From a virus, in the IMG/VR virus record IMGVR_UViG_3300027806_000035, positions 22,447 to 86,446 of that record: 64,000 nucleotides of DNA; one strand, 5' to 3'. Position numbers and translations under genes: made by a program. The notes beneath the pieces were generated by a model. It was not told the origin of the DNA. It searched no databases and saw only the letters and a list, made by a program, of their open reading frames with translations. This document shows positions 2,647 through 27,900 of the stretch, piece by piece (within the stretch, counting starts at the first letter, position 1; each line of letters opens with the position of its first letter).

Positions 2647-4347
2647 CTAGCGCTGCTGCTCTACACCAAGCCGCTGATCCTGCAGGAAATCTGGCGGGTC
2701 ATCATCCGCTGCCCATTCAGCCACCATTTTCATTAGCTCCCCATGCGTGAAATATCTTTTATCTGTTGGCATCTTAAATGTATTTTCAAAGATATCCCGA
2801 CTTTCTTGCAGTTTTTGCTCAAAAAATCTTGCAGGTTCCTCTGCCGTCCTCCGCTCCTGCTGGGGGGTTCCAGGGTTCCGGTGCTCACACCCCTTATGAG
2901 GGGGGGTATGGTGAACCAGTAGATCCCAGTAATGCCAGTGCTTCTGGATGGTGGCCCAGCCCATGCCGAGGAGCTTCCTGACCTGGTTCTTGCTCAGGCC
3001 TGCGGCTGTGTCCTTCATCTTGCAGAACAGGTCGCGCAGGCGTTCACGGCTTGCATTGAAAAGCCTTTCATTGCGGTTGCTATCTGCACTAACTTTGGCT
3101 TTTGCCGTTTTTCCATTTGCGTTCCAACCTCTTCTAAACGAGCAATTGGCCCAGCTTTTGCACCAACTGGTCAGGTTTTCTTTTGTTTCGTCGGATGCGT
3201 ATTGATCGAATCCAGGTGACTCAAGTGCAAGCTGCTCAACAATGGCTGCAAGTTTCTCGGGTGTTTGGGGCTTGTAGCGCAACCTTGCTTGTGTTGTAAG
3301 CGCTCCAAGGTTATCATTACTTTGGCTGGGGCCAGTCCACGCAATGTTGCCCGACGAGCGCTTGAATTCAGAAATCCCGTTGGACACTTTGCTGCACCGC
3401 TTGCTTTGCTTTCGCAAGCTATCTGCCTGAGATACCAGTTTCTTAAAGTTCAAGCAGCTTTGCGCCTCTTCTACAGCACTTTTCAGTTGCTGCAAGATCA
3501 GGACGGGATGGGTGATCGTTCGGTCGCCAACCACCAGGGCTGAGCCCTCTTGGCCGGGGAGGCGGAAACCGTTGCTCAGAGGGCGCTCAGAGGGGCTTCC
3601 GGCATGGAAGGGCATCTCGCTGGGGAACAGCTCGGCCTGGCCCGCTCCCGTGGCGATTCCGGCCCTCTGGAGAAGCGCACGGCCGATCCAGTGAGCCCGG
3701 AAGGCATGGACCCACTCCGGCAGCGCGATGTAGACGTGCAGCCCACCGGAATTGCTGCTGATAACAAAGTCAACCTTGCAGCCACAGTCTTCTGCAACCT
3801 CTTGCAGTCTCAGTAGTTCTTTGCTTTTGCCGAGTGGGTGCCAGTATTTGCTTGGCTTTTCGGGTTTATTGTCAATGTCAACGACGATAAGCCTTACTTG
3901 CCGCTCATGCCTGACTCCAATGATCTCCGCGTCATCAGAGGCGGCTCGGAATGCAATCTGAGAAAATGACAAGGGATGCCATCCAGACAGCCAGCTGGCG
4001 TCAGGCTTCCTGTAAATATAGTTTAGACAGCTTGTGTTGAAGGCCGAGCTAAGCAGCTTTTCATATTCGCGCTTCAGCTCTTTATCAGTTACTCTAAATT
4101 TAAGACCGTCTTCATCTTCGGCGTCAGCGGCGAGCGAATAGCTCTGCTCAAAGCTTTCCTCGCGGGGATCCCCGAGTCGCAGCCATTCCTCGGGCCACTC
4201 TGGGGGAGATTCTTGCCAGTCGTCCTGGGAACCCATTAAAGTGGGTGCGAGCGTGTTGGTGACGCTCATCCGGTCCGTAAAAAGCGATTCGCGTCGCTTG
4301 GACCGAAAGGGGGGATTCAGGAGGCTTGTCCTGGTCCCCCACCCCAT
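2647..4347 (-). CDS. AEP-superfamily primase-polymerase / replication protein
   Basis: AEP motif I VVDID, motif II SNSGGLHVY, downstream FRLPG. Confidence 0.75.
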   Translation of the reverse strand: MGWGTRTSLLNPPFRSKRRESLFTDRMSVTNTLAPTLMGSQDDWQESPPEWPEEWLRLGDPREESFEQSYSLAADAEDEDGLKFRVTDKELKREYEKLLSSAFNTSCLNYIYRKPDASWLSGWHPLSFSQIAFRAASDDAEIIGVRHERQVRLIVVDIDNKPEKPSKYWHPLGKSKELLRLQEVAEDCGCKVDFVISSNSGGLHVYIALPEWVHAFRAHWIGRALLQRAGIATGAGQAELFPSEMPFHAGSPSERPLSNGFRLPGQEGSALVVGDRTITHPVLILQQLKSAVEEAQSCLNFKKLVSQADSLRKQSKRCSKVSNGISEFKRSSGNIAWTGPSQSNDNLGALTTQARLRYKPQTPEKLAAIVEQLALESPGFDQYASDETKENLTSWCKSWANCSFRRGWNANGKTAKAKVSADSNRNERLFNASRERLRDLFCKMKDTAAGLSKNQVRKLLGMGWATIQKHWHYWDLLVHHTPPHKGCEHRNPGTPQQERRTAEEPARFFEQKLQESRDIFENTFKMPTDKRYFTHGELMKMVAEWAADDDPPDFLQDQRLGVEQQR

Positions 4348-21700: not shown

Positions 21701-22638
21701 GCGCGTGTTTTGTCACGTTGCGCCGCTGCTACATCATCAATCTGACAAACAACCTTAGCATCGCCATCATCACCCTTTGGAATGAGTTGAGCTTGGTACT
21801 GAGCCCTGATGACAGGATTTATACGATAAGCGAGATTGTTGCCGATTGGAGAATAAACGCCAAAAGCAGCATTTGAACTGGGTCTGACGACAGAACAGAA
21901 GTCACCAGCCCATGCTCTGTCAATAGAGCGAGCTGCAAAAACATCGTCGCCACCCTGATTCTCAGCATTCCCCGGATCCAGATTTGCAAGTCTGCCGGCA
22001 ATTCTGTCCTCAGACGTGATTCTGCCGCCATCCGGCCTGAAGTAGATGACGTACGAGGATCCTAATTCTGTTCCTGGTCCAATGTTATACGCATTCAGAA
22101 GATTATTGCCCAGAGCAAAACCATTAGGGTCAAGTTCAGCAATTCCGCCATCGCCAGCAAGGAAAACAGCACGGAGTAGTTGCTGACCATTGCTTGTTTG
22201 CAGCTGACTCCACAGTAGATCCATGTTGACGCGGATGCCACCGTAGGTTTCGCCGTCAATCACCTCCTTCAGAGCGAAAACCATCGGCATCGGCTGGCCG
22301 ATCGCTGCCGGCTGCTGCAGCGAATCGAAGCCCTCCCGAGGGGCGTAGCGGCGCACATCGCTGACCGTCTTGCCCAGGCGCTCGCTGCTCTGGATCCGGG
22401 CTGGCTCCACCTCCCCAGGCCGGAAGAACTGGGCGATGATCGTCAGCCCCACGGAGATCGCCGAGGCGACCAGGGAGATCACAGCCAGCGTTCCCAGGGG
22501 CTCGCCGGCCACAACGGCTGGTCGAGGCCCTTTGGCAGCCCTCTTGGCAGCCTCTGCGTAGAACCGCTTCACCTCCTCCGGCCGGATCCCCAAGATGCGA
22601 CCGAGGCGATAGTGCATCGGCAGGAGATGAGGCTTCAC
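18781..22638 (-). CDS. Tail tip / host-specificity protein (lambda gpJ-like hub)
   Basis: About 1285 aa following the L/K-like genes; AIGQPMPMVF, LFTNPVYGTG and IKPGDYVQV motifs; the GTG start at 22638 overlaps the upstream stop (the ORF track starts at 22695). Confidence 0.75.
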   Translation of the reverse strand: MKPHLLPMHYRLGRILGIRPEEVKRFYAEAAKRAAKGPRPAVVAGEPLGTLAVISLVASAISVGLTIIAQFFRPGEVEPARIQSSERLGKTVSDVRRYAPREGFDSLQQPAAIGQPMPMVFALKEVIDGETYGGIRVNMDLLWSQLQTSNGQQLLRAVFLAGDGGIAELDPNGFALGNNLLNAYNIGPGTELGSSYVIYFRPDGGRITSEDRIAGRLANLDPGNAENQGGDDVFAARSIDRAWAGDFCSVVRPSSNAAFGVYSPIGNNLAYRINPVIRAQYQAQLIPKGDDGDAKVVCQIDDVAAAQRDKTRAVYSTRSGFISGDASAIGNTLTYVLDKSSDVETDFSKAFNAQAWDVNVEVERIGGSGTTVNEYRSTNSTTGLRSTAFSGSLSALEAGIQWLDSGDQVVPNPIVTVTQQSGKRVTLSTRLQYNASGLTNDQKKALLYSRFKITFVNGAVDDDEEPSTYYRVNVQQETDVEANYDVDFINQTFSGNYSSASTIYVVESTADSRETVQATLNKGELYSEPAADIASAIAGKQEQWDDAIQIGSLYKFGTALVVCTGRSPEGEVFTSEANFSDPGSQDPRPGQSIEATFTVVRPGVIDLTTISDLRVNANVGSNIDRYTATNFPHLFRVSIATITTTRPTRLIEIIIRSTLGIRINNLCNFRDTISYGAADNKACLDYRGDTISKGSTLKQFNYTSGTVTTAQMRYSFFRIRVRPSSSTGEWITFPECYCIRGINQQSQFNTVRLQFPTVEQWEIEFEPLSGWEIRSGNASGAYVLIEDKRQANGNLITRAHESVVLQVYGKEGNGSDVGVVNDGDDPFRLPAVHKDQAQGYGNLGYGYTDGVQFVDEFGALAETFVFPEVSSTAEGGPEHEIVSVTEIVQNETLPLYPDMGIVGLNLLPGNTFQQLGQLSGYANAGYPEARRLLNDMTPGPTHLFPDIALELFTNPVYGTGDQVSDEQIDIDSFRESAQWCYDNRYFCDLVYLPTNIKEWVAKKAEEHLLYFMEIDGRYVLRPMFPYVEGDRTNWNAPVDIKGVFGLLQMRSFSFSAIDEESRRSIKVSGRWREERKLSTITNPGIFPVEREILLREAGALSSEDDPIQSFDLSDFATNEKHLIDYLKMKARIRRLSTHGITMELTQDSLLAPIKPGDYVQVPVEVTFFNEYKTGIVKSDGLVISVTDIEPGTYQAMIWDGILESEVTESELTINEDGTASPSGIIFVIKESGSDYKTYRILDIDPAENSGFIANAIETPTDENGRLILSQNWGGLSTDENWVIEK

Positions 22639-23042
22639 TTTACAAAACGGCGAAAGTTGAACTTTGGCAGTCCGGGAGTTGTAAGAGGAAGCCAAACAAC
22701 ACCTTTCCTTGTGTGAATTGTAACGACACCAAGATTGCCGCTATTTTCAAGTACCGTAGAGATCCCGAGCTTTGGGTGTCCGCCGGCTCCCCTGTTCCGC
22801 GTCATTGCTACACAGCCCTGCTCAACAACATCAGTTGGACAGGTGTGATGATTCCAAGCCGTCTCCAGTGAACCCCAGAGTCCAGCAGCGGCCATGTCCA
22901 TCCAACGAGGATCAATCTCTGGCCTGTAGATTCCGGCTTCATCGAGAAGGGTGAAACAGAGGAGCAAGCAATCTGCGGCTTTTCCTTCTTTCGGGTCAGC
23001 CCAGAACTCATGCTTCAGTCCAAGATACTGATGAAGGCTCAT
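22635..23042 (-). CDS. NlpC/P60-like tail assembly protein (gpK-like)
   Basis: YLGLKHEF...ADCLLL motif; position between the minor tail and tip genes. Confidence 0.65.
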   Translation of the reverse strand: MSLHQYLGLKHEFWADPKEGKAADCLLLCFTLLDEAGIYRPEIDPRWMDMAAAGLWGSLETAWNHHTCPTDVVEQGCVAMTRNRGAGGHPKLGISTVLENSGNLGVVTIHTRKGVVWLPLTTPGLPKFNFRRFVK

Positions 23043-23527
23043 ACGGAAATGGTTCCAGATGTTGGCAGCGCTCCCACAAGCGACTGTGAAAGCGGTCTAC
23101 CACCAACTGTAGCGTTGACAGTATCAAGTGGACTGGCAAGCTGAAGAACAGATTGACCCGGCCTGCCCATCTCAACCGCACCCTCAACCCTGCAGGACCA
23201 CAGCATCTTGGTCAGCTGCGTAAGTTCTTGATCGGTTTCAGTGTCAATCTCTACTGAAGTTACCTCAACCAGCCACTTACTGGAGTCCGCTTGCCAGAAG
23301 ATGTTTTGGACAAGGGTGTTGGCTGGACATACGATCGCACCCCTGCTGCGTTCTCCGCCCTGCTTGCCGCCACCACCAGAAACGCCAAGAGGGGCAAAGT
23401 CGTAATCAACTCCACCGTAAGTGCGCGTTTCGTTAATGAAATAGTTTTGGTACGCATAGGGGAGGTAGCCCCCTCCCCCGCGTTCCTTGAAGCGGATGTA
23501 GCTGACAATTGCGAATTCCCCTTTCAC
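23039..23527 (-). CDS. Minor tail protein (gpL-like)
   Basis: YQNYFINETRTYGGVDYDFAP...LASPLD...LVGALPTSG; follows the tape measure gene. Confidence 0.7.
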   Translation of the reverse strand: MKGEFAIVSYIRFKERGGGGYLPYAYQNYFINETRTYGGVDYDFAPLGVSGGGGKQGGERSRGAIVCPANTLVQNIFWQADSSKWLVEVTSVEIDTETDQELTQLTKMLWSCRVEGAVEMGRPGQSVLQLASPLDTVNATVGGRPLSQSLVGALPTSGTISV

Positions 23528-23531
23528 TGAA

Positions 23532-23564
23532 TCAGAGCCCCAGGCGCTTACGTGTCTTCATGCT
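23532..23564 (-). pseudogene. Displaced original 3' end of the tape measure gene; also the predicted TnpB guide
   Basis: AGC ATG AAG ACA CGT AAG CGC CTG GGG CTC TGA = SMKTRKRLGL*, identical in protein to the current tape measure C-terminus. Confidence 0.92.
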
Positions 23565-23720
23565 TTGACTTCCAGCCACCATACAGATGGTAGCCTCCTT
23601 CTACGCTGTGCATGGGAATGCCTCAGCGATCGGGTGGGTTGACGCTTCACAGCCTGCCGCCACCGAAAGGGTGGACTGATGCACGGCTCCACGCCCGTTT
23701 TGACTCTCCGCCAGTCCGGC
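23545..23720 (-). ncRNA. Predicted TnpB omegaRNA/reRNA with guide AGCATGAAGACACGTAAGCG
   Basis: Overlaps the tnpB 3' end; right-end hairpin GGCTACCAT-CTGT-ATGGTGGCT, then GGAAG-TCAA, then the guide; the 5' boundary is approximate. Confidence 0.7.
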
Positions 23721-24809
23721 GGCGAGGATGTTCAAAGCAGCGTTGATGTCGCGGTCGTGAACCGTTCCGCAACTCGGGCACTGCCACTCCCGAATCGACA
23801 GCTCTTTCTTGCCGTCGTGATGGCCGCAAGCTGAGCAGACCTGACTGGTAGGGAGCCATCGGTTGATGACAACCACCTGCCTGCCATATTGCTCAGCCTT
23901 GGACTCCAGCAGAGCCCTGAACTGCCGCCAACCCGCATCGGCAATCGAGCGGGCCAGCTTCTTGTTCTTCAGCATCCCCGAAACGTTCAGGTCTTCCAGC
24001 ACCACCGTTTGGTTTTCACGGATGATGCGGGTCGAGAGCTGATGCAGGAAGTCGAGGCGCCGATCAGCAGCCTTGGCGTGCAGCTTGGCTACCCTGCGTC
24101 TAGCGAAAGCCAGACGGTTAGAGCCCTTTTCCTTGTGCTTCAGGTTGCGCTGCAGCCGCCGCAGCCGCTTAAGCGCCGAGCGCAGAAACCTCGGCGGAGC
24201 AATCTTTTTGCCATCTGAGGTAACGGCGAGGGATGTCAAGCCCAAGTCTATGCCAATCACTTTGCCGTTTTTCGGCATTTGACTTGGCTCGACTTCTACA
24301 ACAAAGCTTGCGAAATAACGTCCGCTGGAATCACGAATAATTGTGACACTGGTTGGCGATGACGGCAGTGAGCGACTCCAAATAATTGGCACTGAACCAA
24401 TTTTTGCAAGAATCAAACGATTATTTTTTACGCGAAATGCATTGGATGTAAAACGAGCTGACTGGGTGCCGCACTTTTTCTTGAAGCGCGGCGGGCCAAC
24501 CCCACTGCCCCTGCGCTTTCCTTTTAGGCTATTCCACCAATTACGATAGGCTCTGTCAAGGTCGCGCACAGACTGCTGAAGTATCGTATTACTTGGTTCG
24601 GCAAGCCACTTTCTTTCAGGAGTCTGCTTCGCTTGAGTAATGCAAAGCTTGGCTAAAATTGGATAGGTAACTTTTTGACCAGCACTGTATAGCTCGCGGC
24701 TTTTGGCTAGAGCGTCATTCCATACAACGCGAGCGCAGCCAAAGGCCTTGCCGATCGCACCTATTTGGTGCGGGTGTGGATACAGGCGAAACCGGTAGCG
24801 TCGCTTCAT
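23601..24809 (-). CDS. tnpB: RNA-guided endonuclease TnpB
   Basis: YRFRLYP...[10 protein letters not shown]-terminus; RuvC-I GIDLG, RuvC-II VLEDL, Zn finger CSACG/CPSCG, Ruv[15 protein letters not shown]; all three catalytic residues present. Confidence 0.97.
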
Positions 24810-24815
24810 CAGTCA

Positions 24816-24824
24816 ATTATACCA
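24816..24824 (-). promoter_or_regulatory. Extended -10 promoter giving a probably leaderless tnpB mRNA
   Basis: TGGTATAAT followed by 6 nt (TGACTG) and the tnpB ATG. Confidence 0.7.
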
Positions 24825-24901
24825 CGCGGGGCCACTCCTACCCACCCCCGGCTTCCCGTCGCCTTGGCGTATGGTCGCTTAATTGCCCGACAAGTATATA
24901 A

Positions 24902-27900
24902 CTACAGGCCGAGTCGTTTTCTGGTCTTCATGCTATCGGCAAGTTCACGAATCGTCTGGTTCCGGGCCACCTTAGCAGTACGGGCATTAGATGCCTCAAG
25001 CTGCTCGGGAGTGACGAAATCGTACTCGTTGACGCGAGTGGTTTCGTACTTGATCGGAGGCAGTTCTTTCGGGCTGCTGGTGACACGCTCCAGTCGGTCG
25101 ATCTCCCTGGTCGTTTCACTCCGCTGATACGGAACGGCCCGACCATAGTTGCCGGTGTAGATGGTGTCACTAGATTCACCATCACCGCTCTCCATGCTGC
25201 TCGCGGCGCGACGGGTATAGCGGCCGATCGAAGGGGCACTGCCGCCCTTGTCGTCAAGGCCGGGGACGTACAGCTCGTCGTTGGGAATGATCGTGCCTGG
25301 GCGGTCGGGAACCCACAGCTCAGGGCCGTTCTCGCCGATGATCGCCGGGTCGTAGGGATCAGGGCGACCGCCCGAGGCATAGCCAGGCAGGCCGAGGTTG
25401 CCGAGGTTGAGCATTTCGCCGGTAAAGCCGGGGAGCGACGACTTCGGCTTGCTGCCAAACAGACCTGACAGTCCACCGCCAGCGCCAAACATTCCAGTGA
25501 TAGAGCTGATGGATCCGAAGATTGAAGCTGCACCCATCAGGGTGTTGTAAGCCCCGCCCTTGCGGATCATCTGAGCGCCGCCAACGCCCATCGCGATGCT
25601 GCTGATCGCTTGCAGGCCGATGCCAACTGTTTTCTGGAACTTGGTGACAGAATCTGACATCTGAGTGCCGAGATCCTGAACGCTATCTGTCGCTTGCGCG
25701 GCTGCCTGGCCAAGCTGACCCAGCGATTCGGCCGTCTGATTTCCAGCTGCAGTAGCGGGACCATAGGCAGCGCCAACAGCCTCGCGCATTGCATCGTAAG
25801 CCTCAAGCATTCTCCTAGCATTTTCCTCAGCATTGAACTGAGGAGCTGGCTGAACCTGGGACACAACAGAGCCAATTTCGGAAAGAAGCTTGCTGGTGAT
25901 CGCAGGGTTTAGGCCGGGCTCTCTGCCTGGGCCGTGGAAGAAGTTCTGCCCCTCGGCTCGCAGGAAGTCGCCCTGCATCATATTGCCGTACTGGCTAACG
26001 CCTTTGAAATACAAGCGGCCATTGATGTCCTTGATCGACTGCTCAAGAAGTGCGGGATCAAGAAGCTCGGCCTTGACCTTGTTGAACAGGTCGGCGCCGT
26101 AACGATTTGGATTGACGACTTGGGCGCGACTCAGGCCAAAATTTGGTGCATACTGGCCGGCTTGGGTTACGACATCCACCAGATTCGATGGATACTGACC
26201 GGAGCGTGAGCGGCTGAGGATGTTCGCGAAAACATCAGTTCTGCCCAGCGGATCGGATCCACCATATTCGCCAATTGCAGTATTGACTGCAGCCGCAATT
26301 TCTTCATCCGTAAGACGCAGCGCCTCCTTGATGCTTCTGCCGGTCATCGGCAGATCAGGCCCGCCAACGCCCGTGAACTGTCCAGTTGCTCCACTGGACT
26401 GAGCGTCCCGATACCACTGACCGCTCTTGGGGGGCTCCGTTGCCGGCGACCTGCCGCCTGGACCTGGGACAATCCCGTTCGCGGGAGCCGTGGCCGGGGC
26501 CGGAGTGGCGCCGCGAGCCGCCGCAGCCGCAGTCTCAGCCTTTTTGACAAGTTCAATGGCAGCCTGAAGAATCTTGTCGGTATTGTCCTTGACAGCAGTA
26601 ATTGGCTGAAGCAGGGGGTTCTGCTCAGGTTTGATGCCTAAGACATCGGAGAGATTCTTGAACAGCTGATCCTGCAGGGGGCGCAGCGTAAACTCAAGGA
26701 GGACATCAAGAGTCCGATCTGCAACGCCTTCAGCGAAACGCTGAACAGATTCCAGCAGGTTCCCGCCTTTCAGCAGTTCTTTATTGAGCTGGATAAACGA
26801 GTCGGTCCAGCCACTTGCAATATCCCTAAGTCCATTAAGAACCTTGAGCTTGGCATTCAAGTTGTCAAGCGCTTTTGCGTTTCTGAGGATTTCCTCCTCC
26901 TGTCTTGGGTTGATGCCAAGCCCGCCACGGCTGTTGATGATTTGCAGCCACTTATCATATTCGCTGACAGGGAGCAGGAGCGCAGAAATCTCACCCCTCG
27001 CCTGAGTAATGGAGTTGCTGAGCTGGTCGTTTGACTGGGTGTAAAACTCAATTGTTGGCCGCAGCTTTTCAAACTCGACAGTAACTTTTTCCGCAGTGGC
27101 AATTAAGCCGAGCAGTTCGGGTGTCAGCTTGAAATCTGGCCGCCTTGCAAGAGAGCTGACAAGGCTTGTGTAAGAGCCTTGAATGACGCCGATGGCAATT
27201 GAGAAATCGTCTGCGACAAGGCCAAGTGCCTTCCTGGATCTAGTAAGAGAGTCGTCAAGCTCTTTGAATGGACCGGTGGCAAGATCGCTTATGCGACCAA
27301 TAAATTCATTGAAGTTGCCAGCCTGACCAGAATTGACAAGTGAAGTTTCAAGGTCGAGCAGGGTCTTCTGAAGCTGATCCCCGCGTGCCACGGCCTGCGT
27401 TACGCCAGCAGTAGAAACACTCCGAGTGGAGACAGACGGAATCTCCCTGAGCTTTGGAGGAGCCTTTGTTGTCTCAATCGCTTTCAGGTTTTCGCCCGCG
27501 AGCTTCAGATTTTCTGTGATGTTGTCGAAGATTGTTTGATTTGCCGTGAGTACGTCTTGATAGACCTGCTTGCCAGGATTCTCCTTCGCATTGACCTTTG
27601 CGCTTTCAAGGAAGCTGCTCTGCCTTGCCTGCATGACAAGGAGTTCGTTCTTGATAACCTCTGCCTTAAGCGAGGCAATTTTCTTTTCGGCTTCAAATGT
27701 ATTCAGGGCCGCATCTTCGTTTCTGCGTGCAACGCTTCTGTTGATCTCCTGAATTTTTTCGGCGGTGCTGATATTCAGGTCCGAAACCCTCTTGGCAACC
27801 TCGGCCTTGTACTTTTCAAGCTCAACCTGTTGGTTGCTAATCGCAATCTCAAACTGCTTACGGCGTTGCTCGATCTGATCCTGGGCCGAAAGCTGAGCGC

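Follow-up and report, generated by a model that had tools for sequence, protein, structure and literature searches.

A tnpB insert near the end of a cyanophage tail gene carries a re-spelled copy of the gene end that it displaces: a candidate RNA-guided homing module

Most tnpB genes in nature have no adjoining transposase gene, and by what means they are maintained and disseminated is an open question in the field from which Cas12 emerged. The TnpB nuclease with its omegaRNA cuts a target motif joined to the sequence found after the right end of its element and thereby restores excised elements; the target that IS200/IS605 insertion sequences (IS) prefer is TTGAT (PMC13565253). In plasmids, TnpB can drive an IS through the copies of a replicon without the transposase TnpA (PMC11870625). 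In fungal mitochondria, mobile open reading frames (mORFs) and gene hybrids place an endonuclease gene near the 3' end of an essential gene, to which they bring a diverged C-terminus in place of the native one, and leave the native end downstream (Allomyces macrogynus atp6; Glomus atp6, atp9, cox2 and nad3; PMC3630166). Here we analyze a locus from a lake cyanophage, contained in a stretch of 64,000 nt (the window) of the 86-kb IMG/VR virus record IMGVR_UViG_3300027806_000035, in which a tnpB gene stands at the 3' end of a giant tape-measure-like tail gene. All features of the locus lie on the minus strand. We propose, with a probability of roughly 0.65, that it is a homing module composed of TnpB and its omegaRNA, devoid of transposase and left end, that carries a spare end for the gene it occupies.

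The 3' end of the tail gene reads GCCGAT AGC ATG AAG ACC AGA AAA CGA CTC GGC CTG TAG (24940-24902), and 92 nt separate this stop from the start of tnpB. On the opposite side the element terminates in ...GGAAGTCAA, and directly 3' of this right end lies AGC ATG AAG ACA CGT AAG CGC CTG GGG CTC TGA (23564-23532), followed by TTCA and by the GTG start (23527) of a gene of 162 amino acids (aa). Both 33-nt stretches (24934-24902 and 23564-23532) translate as SMKTRKRLGL*. Their leading 11 nt are the same, and all eight later codons, the stop included, differ, every time silently, which confirms from sequence and translations what an earlier reading of the letters alone (the sequence-only reading) had noticed. 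A repeat search pairs the two stretches at a spacing of 1370 nt (76% identity over 29 nt), and the chance that a random 24-mer codes for TRKRLGL plus a stop is about 4e-10, by arithmetic from codon degeneracy; duplication of the gene end by chance is excluded. A screen for such peptide duplications across other elements, which had also been suggested, returned the case in the window and no other among about 40 family loci. We refer to the copy that closes the tail gene as the cassette or spare end, and to the copy after the right end as the displaced end.

Six element-free relatives, in which the tail gene runs uninterrupted into the next gene, were found among IMG/VR contigs through their neighboring proteins. 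All of these empty alleles read GCYGAT AGY MTS AAR ACN CGY AAG CGY CTG GGG CTC TGA, then 3-4 nt, then GTG. As the sequence-only reading had anticipated, element-free relatives carry the spelling of 23532-23564 and not that of 24902-24934 (6/6), and their gene end lies at about the expected 4 nt from the next start. The motif 5' of the empty target is CTGAT in five of the six and CCGAT in the remaining one (L002, the closest relative). The predicted guide position (AGCATGAAGACACGTAAGCG) matches L004 and L006 at 19 of 20 nt after CTGAT, with the mismatch at position 15, and L002 at 19 of 20 after CCGAT; for L003, L007 and L005 the values are 18, 17 and 16 of 20. Against the carrier's own cassette it matches 16 of 20 nt after CCGAT, with mismatches at positions 12, 13, 15 and 18. 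The claim that the guide fits element-free alleles and mismatches the recoded cassette is borne out in this form (19/20 in three relatives against 16/20). No tnpB was found in the records of the relatives, which are fragments (10-27%). Both flanks of the insert are ~90-92% identical to those of L002, whereas the recoded 22 nt are 55% identical; an asymmetric divergence of the flanks around the insert, considered at one stage, was dropped given this equal identity.

In L005 and L007 (5960-5990; for the motif of L002, 5955-5990), guide positions 3-6 coincide with the one residue of the C-terminus that varies (Met/Leu). The CCGAT and Met/Leu variants of the empty alleles could be nuclease-resistant, or could be due to chance. 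Further upstream, beyond ~700 nt from the insert (25650-26434), L002-L007 are unalignable with the window (~30-40% identity), while the last 700 nt of the tail gene and the downstream genes are 75-97% identical in these relatives; the giant gene is mosaic, and its C-terminal module is conserved.

The stretch is present in sequencing runs from 2017, 2019 and 2024, ten of which contain 98-100% of its sampled words, and the contigs of four runs were placed on 22900-25900; those of run X11 cover neither junction. In the independent run X14 (2019), record 20 bridges the cassette junction (24684-25049) with 0 differences. In run X13 (2024, from another lake study), records 9 and 13 bridge both junctions. 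A 3036-nt X13 contig extends from inside tnpB through the cassette into the tail gene, with 5 listed differences in 945 nt of element and cassette (~99.5% identical) compared with 15 in the 133 nt that follow (24931-25063) and a further increase in divergence past them (Fisher p 1e-10); four further differences are unlisted and probably lie next to the ends of the placed piece. The first flank differences are at 24931 (ATG to CTG, the Leu variant of the relatives) and 24938 (GCC to GCT, restoring CTGAT), which places the break inside the 11 nt common to the cassette and the original end. The right end is spanned by the second X13 contig, which has 83 differences over 745 nt together with the 3-nt spacer of the relatives at 23528, four bases past the displaced stop. 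The X13 flanks are therefore 11-17% different from those of the window (11-14% on the left side), compared with 0.5% inside the element. The same nuclease, guide scaffold and spare end are thus found in two diverged phage backgrounds, and since identity is lost no further than 8 nt from the recoded part on the left, and no further than 37 nt from the right end on the other side, the cassette travels with the nuclease.

Edges that coincide with the element appear to be the footprint of copying-in at this site and not of generic mosaicism, and a junction inside the shared 11 nt is more readily reconciled with recombinational repair than with transposition at the motif. Reading the 11-nt identity by itself as a recombination joint was dropped, as those 11 nt contain two synonymous sites only and are uninformative alone. 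Among the four runs placed, no contig joined across the element as an empty allele would. Taking the six empty alleles and the two carrier backgrounds together, presence and absence alternate at one homologous site, and the predicted guide target is intact only in the empty alleles.

The gene end concerned is strongly conserved. A search with the C-terminal part found 32 homologues, 51-88% identical over that part, of which about 25 terminate in ADS[ML]KTRKR[LI]GL; homologues further removed still show the motif in a looser form. A canonical insertion at this site would replace the conserved C-terminus, which the cassette therefore restores exactly. All seven ancestral-type sequences have CTG GGG CTC TGA without a single nucleotide change, even though GGG and CTC are rare codons in the tail gene, and this invariance would fit an additional role in initiating the next gene, 4 nt further downstream, a gene that is 84-98% identical in eight related phage contigs. 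The insert would then have split two roles, with the cassette coding for the protein end and the leftover keeping its place before the next gene as well as serving as guide template. The tail gene itself is likely a tape measure, judging by its size, its position upstream of tail genes (one of which, coding for 1304 aa, matches the tail protein phrog_27845), its GENGPELW motif and the domains of its distant homologues, PF09718 (lambda tape measure C) and PF01551 (M23). The protein also has glycine-rich hydrophobic segments; it had no match in PHROG or NCBIfam, and Pfam TMP_N reached only E 0.78.

The insert could be delimited by comparison with its family. Freshwater picocyanobacterial genome bins (Prochlorococcaceae/Cyanobium type) contain TnpB relatives with ~80% aa identity in abundance, and four further family copies were found on viral contigs. 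The 3' end could be read in 25 copies, and in all of them the resemblance to the window ceases precisely behind GGAAGTCAA, with unrelated DNA beyond, so that the right end at 23565 is firm and the boundary at TCAA drawn by the sequence-only reading is exact. The canonical left end, CAGTGGCTGTTCTGGGATACAAACCCC... with a CCGTCC/GGACGG hairpin, was recognized in 12 copies, eleven of them from hosts and one from a phage, at a distance of 488 nt upstream from tnpB and beyond a divergent frameshifted tnpA, or directly upstream of tnpB in copy L025. It is preceded by TGAT in all 12 copies, with C as the base before in seven, T in four and G in one. These counts point to YTGAT as the family target motif, in agreement with the TTGAT that Karvelis in 2021 is said to have reported for ISDra2. 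Because TGAT precedes the canonical left end in the 12 family copies, the insert occupies a canonical target site of the YTGAT type and the guide position is the displaced gene end. A (C)CGAT target motif had been proposed for the locus from its letters; that sequence does stand in the carrier and is shared with one relative, but the family motif is YTGAT, in the 12 copies and as CTGAT in five of six empty alleles. The carrier's CCGAT is an off-consensus variant that the layout does not need, since the second carrier background keeps CTGAT.

On the left, the parts needed for transposition are missing. No Y1 tnpA (PF01797) was found in the whole 86-kb record, where controls responded, in line with the absence of tnpA noted earlier. 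The host left end, CAGTGGCTG... with its CCGTCC-TTCG-GGACGG hairpin, is absent from the window, whose left side is not more structured than shuffled sequences (z +0.8) and aligns weakly over its 92 nt with the tnpA-5'/intergenic segment of family copies. With such a left side, the element cannot be a TnpA substrate. With regard to target duplication, the right junction is canonical, whereas the left junction carries a diverged duplicate of 33-37 nt of the target. Lacking TnpA, a left end and a duplication-free insertion, the element does not classify as an autonomous IS200/IS605 transposon.

The host copies are themselves peculiar. Those in cyanobacterial bins (L030-L052) have, in the region 230-500 nt upstream of tnpB, a divergent Y1 tnpA with frameshifts. 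Truncation at identical internal points (234 and 355 nt upstream of tnpB) recurs in several of them, and no intact transposase was present in the host copy read in detail, yet dozens of tnpB copies per genome are intact. Host copy L032 has the same 13-nt string (GTGATCTGGCCGT) in both flanks, at about 1470-1510 and 3247-3290, which is a plain DNA repeat of the insertion region and not a recoded duplicate.

By its sequence, the window nuclease belongs to the ISDra2-type TnpB family, of which it is an ordinary representative. Pfam recognizes HTH_OrfB_IS605, OrfB_IS605 (RuvC) and a Cas12f1-like TNB domain (E 1.2e-15, 3.9e-31 and 3.7e-26, above curated cut-offs), and ISDra2 TnpB structures match it with E 1.7e-75. 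Alignment to TnpB structures and the motif positions agree that the RuvC D/E/D triad is kept, as previously read from the letters: D188 in GIDLG, E272 in LEDLN and D354 in HDRDIN. The two CxxC pairs of the zinc finger (CSAC and CPSC) are also intact, and an identical protein is recorded from 17 contigs. The tnpB ATG is preceded at 6 nt by an extended -10 element TGGTATAAT (24824-24816), leaving no room for a Shine-Dalgarno sequence, which suggests a leaderless message with its own promoter; a consensus promoter scan, which requires a -35 element, did not list it.

The ~240 nt that precede the right end are very conserved across family copies, and their terminal hairpin is kept through changes on both sides, with CTACCAT...ATGGTGG in the window and CTCCGCCG...CGGCGGGG or CCGGCC...GGCCGG in others. 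A conserved region with a compensated hairpin is what an omegaRNA scaffold should look like. The single-sequence fold was no more stable than shuffled versions (z -0.67), so that support comes from comparison instead, and no Rfam family matches the scaffold. In the RNA-library (metatranscriptome) run X15, a single 249-nt contig matches the window with 100% identity at exactly 23551-23799, corresponding to the scaffold plus 14 nt of the guide and to nothing else of the 3-kb stretch, a weak hint of omegaRNA expression. A TnpB variant of 99% identity, P0001, encoded on a 25,962-nt contig, differs in only five of the last 25 residues, and these resemble host-type copies (APTHPIAEASPCAA); the region corresponds to 23601-23680 of the window, and the pattern suggests that the phage omegaRNA region may have been gene-converted by host copies. 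Shorter variants in ENA, P0122-P0124, combine phage-type and host-type residues.

The module sits at its target site 33 nt before the end of the tape-measure-like gene. The re-spelled 33-nt copy on its left side, with a probable spacer of ~4 nt, lets the tail protein keep its C-terminus, and the displaced original end lies directly 3' of the right end, where the omegaRNA guide is expected to be read. Under the proposed homing, in a co-infection of a carrier and an element-free relative, TnpB would cut the element-free allele in the end of an indispensable gene. Repair from the carrier would copy the nuclease, the guide template and the spare gene end in together, and if repair failed the rival genome would be lost. 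The carrier would be protected by the insert, by the four guide mismatches and, in the window genome, by CCGAT. The production of omegaRNA, cleavage, self-immunity, homing in co-infection and biased inheritance are all steps that we infer, and for homing the TnpA-independent spread of IS605 by TnpB in plasmids (PMC11870625) is a precedent. The spare end is DNA that moves along with the nuclease gene; the idea that TnpB itself "repairs and recodes" the gene was abandoned.

Several points weigh against this proposal. None of the six empty alleles matches the guide at 20 of 20 positions, and both the carrier and its closest relative, L002, have the off-consensus CCGAT. Difference at all eight codons is only marginally beyond random synonymous choice (p ~0.05). 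Carriers are known from two backgrounds only, and the X13 background from a table of differences and not from its sequence. The X15 contig from the RNA library could be DNA carry-over, and the identity of the tape measure comes from size, position and motifs and not from a family model.

Where the cassette came from can be considered separately. Of its 10 informative codons, 8 depart from the original, compared with synonymous codon differences of 0.15-0.21 to the closest relatives and of 0.40-0.50 in the farthest pairs compared, phage against host tnpB included. Two routes are conceivable. In the first, an empty genome and a canonically occupied one would have recombined unequally, after which the copy, no longer constrained by the next gene start, would have diverged under pressure from self-cleavage and from deletion between repeats. 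The spacer after the cassette (TAG TTAT, compared with TGA TTCA in the window and TGA TTCT in L002) resembles TTCW, suggesting a DNA-level duplication that ran past the stop. In the second, a foreign gene end would have been captured, as proposed for the fungal mobile ORFs; the donor would be an unsampled distant phage with the same C-terminus. This second explanation concerns origin only and is compatible with homing, and we hold it unlikely, though not far-fetched. The excess of codon differences over that seen among the closest relatives speaks for it, and so do the Glomus and Allomyces gene hybrids, where the native end is near-identical to relatives and the inserted end is 64-81% identical (PMC3630166). 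On the other hand, the seven ancestral-type sequences have CTG GGG CTC TGA without exception, distant ones included, the gene end of a more distant relative is quite different, and the peptide is identical to the resident one and not a distant variant.

Nor did the databases provide a donor, an absence that is weak evidence. The cassette spelling, searched exactly and as a degenerate pattern (AGR Arg, TAG stop), was found in neither IMG/VR nor JGI metagenome contigs. Likewise, as equally weak evidence, a pattern of right end plus target gave five chance matches in metagenomes and none in IMG/VR, and two element-specific patterns had no match in IMG/VR. The GenBank phage collection contained no relative of the locus, only distant transposase matches.

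TnpB could alternatively be mainly a weapon in phage-phage competition that cuts co-infecting relatives, with copying into the rival rare or irrelevant. The target falls within the final codons of a conserved structural gene, partly coinciding with the conserved stretch ahead of the next start, and interference competition by a phage intron endonuclease has been described (Birkholz 2024, as cited in PMC13565253). Killing alone, however, would not put the same element and cassette into a diverged background with edges at the element, which is the mark of copying-in, and we find this explanation rather unlikely.

Still less does the locus look like a fossil, that is, an IS605-type insertion followed by a compensating rearrangement in which illegitimate or unequal recombination restored the frame and removed the left end and tnpA, and whose inactive passenger TnpB is shared by ordinary mosaic recombination. 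The degenerate left side with tnpA remnants and the visible mosaicism of phage tail genes here are what such a history would leave, and TTAT after the cassette stop points to plain DNA duplication. Against this stand the intact tnpB with its catalytic residues and its identical protein in 17 contigs, the conserved scaffold with its compensated hairpin, and above all the X13 break at no more than 8 nt from the recoded part and no more than 37 nt from the right end, where generic mosaicism would not place it. We regard a fossil as improbable. A chimeric contig joining a host TnpB copy to phage DNA can be dismissed almost entirely, even with ~80% aa-identical tnpB copies abundant in likely host genomes and assemblies that break near them, given that both junctions are bridged by contigs of other runs and studies, that the element is only ~80% identical to host copies, and that ten runs contain nearly all of the sampled words of the stretch.

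Overall, the homing module agrees with the data in every sequence-level test that could be run, and the sequence-only reading is to that extent partly supported, with its motif and its "recoding" corrected. A more ambitious version of the proposal, to which we give somewhat less than an even chance, is that the locus represents an evolved, self-propagating, RNA-guided home-and-rescue drive of phages, in which a single mobile unit of nuclease, guide template and spare gene end needs nothing but homing to spread between related phages, selection has made the spare end as dissimilar to the guide as the protein permits, and the CCGAT and Met/Leu variants are resistance alleles in an arms race.

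The features of the locus are collected in Table 1. Two smaller observations were made within it. The displaced end opens with an in-frame ATG and forms a mini-ORF of nine codons, MKTRKRLGL* (23532-23561), with its stop 4 nt 5' of the next GTG, which might keep the downstream tail gene translationally coupled despite the insertion. In addition, a 13-nt inverted repeat (24747-24759 and 24931-24943, 12/13 complementary) pairs the junction and target-motif region with tnpB codons 17-21, and may be due to chance, as there are 19 similar pairs in the region.

Table 1. Coordinates of the features of the tnpB locus in the window, in the order of transcription
Feature	Position	Strand	Basis or remark
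Giant tape-measure-like tail gene, 2466 aa	24902..32302	-	ORF; now terminates in the recoded cassette
Target-adjacent motif position	24935..24939	-	CCGAT here; CTGAT in most relatives
Spare gene end (cassette), 10 codons + TAG	24902..24934	-	sequence, repeat search, comparison with relatives
TTAT after cassette stop	24898..24901	-	probable copy of the TTCW spacer 3' of the original stop
Non-canonical left side	24810..24897	-	degenerate remnant of tnpA-5'/intergenic segment; without left-end hairpin
tnpB, 402 aa	23601..24809	-	Pfam, structure match, motif positions
omegaRNA scaffold (predicted)	23565..23804	-	overlaps tnpB 3' end and right end; family comparison
Terminal hairpin	23593-23576	-	within omegaRNA scaffold
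Right end TCAA	23568-23565	-	final letters of the element
Guide position (predicted), first 20 nt 3' of right end	23545..23564	-	first part of the displaced end
Displaced original gene end, 10 codons + TGA	23532..23564	-	severed from the tail gene; spelling as in six empty alleles
Next tail-module gene, 162 aa, GTG start	23039..23527	-	ORF; phrog_25799 match

If the proposal is correct, the locus offers a testable answer to how a tnpB gene without transposase can last, namely by homing between co-infecting phages with the cost of insertion removed by a spare gene end, where the usual alternatives are splicing (IStrons, introns and inteins) or intergenic sites. The natural empty alleles, the putative resistant alleles and the two carrier backgrounds make cleavage, immunity and drive accessible to experiments with defined sequences.

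Compared with described systems, the locus shares with ISDra2-type TnpB/omegaRNA and its restorative homing (Karvelis 2021; Meers 2023; reviewed in PMC13565253) the protein family, a scaffold over the 3' end of the gene, a right end in ...TCAA, a guide just after the right end and a TTGAT-like motif; unlike those systems, it lacks both TnpA and a left-end hairpin, there is no excision for it to restore, and its target would be the homologous site in other genomes. It departs from canonical IS200/IS605 insertions by the re-spelled duplicate of the displaced gene end at its left junction. As in the IS605 plasmid gene drive, where TnpB cuts element-free copies of the replicon and carriers take over without a transposase (Mears et al. 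2025, PMC11870625), the carrier would gain at the expense of empty alleles; that drive is a laboratory system with a complete IS at a non-essential site, whereas the present one is natural, stands in an indispensable gene of a virulent-type phage and has a rescue piece.

Other systems that occupy genes resolve the insertion differently. IStrons, which combine a group I intron with an IS605 or IS607 element carrying TnpB (PMC4227781, PMC13565253), also have TnpB within a gene neutralize its own insertion and keep TnpB after loss of TnpA, but they do so by RNA self-splicing, while here the gene would be kept whole at the DNA level by the spare end. An Rfam scan of 22500-26000 for a group I intron gave only a chance lncRNA match and the tail gene is closed by a stop codon before the element, and an IStron was rejected on these two grounds. 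Free-standing homing endonucleases of phages and intronless homing (SegF, SegB and Mob; PMC13565253) resemble the locus in their presence and absence among relatives, in their proposed action during co-infection and in the co-transfer of adjoining DNA; they lie between genes, and the protein reads a few substitutions, whereas the window element would tell self from rival by guide-target pairing and by the insert. Prophage e14 in icd (PMC6379469) likewise supplies a replacement 3' end with which the interrupted gene stays functional, through an integrase and att sites and not, as proposed here, with a nuclease aimed at empty alleles.

The closest layout appears to be that of the fungal mitochondrial mORFs, in which an endonuclease gene near the 3' end of an essential gene brings the C-terminus and leaves the native end downstream. 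Their nucleases are LAGLIDADG or GIY-YIG proteins, protein-only and eukaryotic-organellar (PMC3630166); that of the window would be RNA-guided, with the leftover end as guide template. The displaced end would therefore be functional for the element. Our literature searches found no description of such an arrangement with TnpB, and what would be new is an RNA-guided version, in a phage, in which the leftover native end doubles as guide template. The layout of an endonuclease joined to a foreign gene C-terminus would in this way extend from fungal mitochondria to RNA-guided nucleases and bacterial viruses. Among engineered systems, the sequence-only reading had pointed to cleave-and-rescue; the likeness to a rescue drive holds, but the closest design is home-and-rescue, in which a guided nuclease is placed in an essential gene together with a recoded rescue that its guide cannot cut (PMC7968924). 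Those drives are built in insects with Cas9, and the locus described here would be their natural counterpart.

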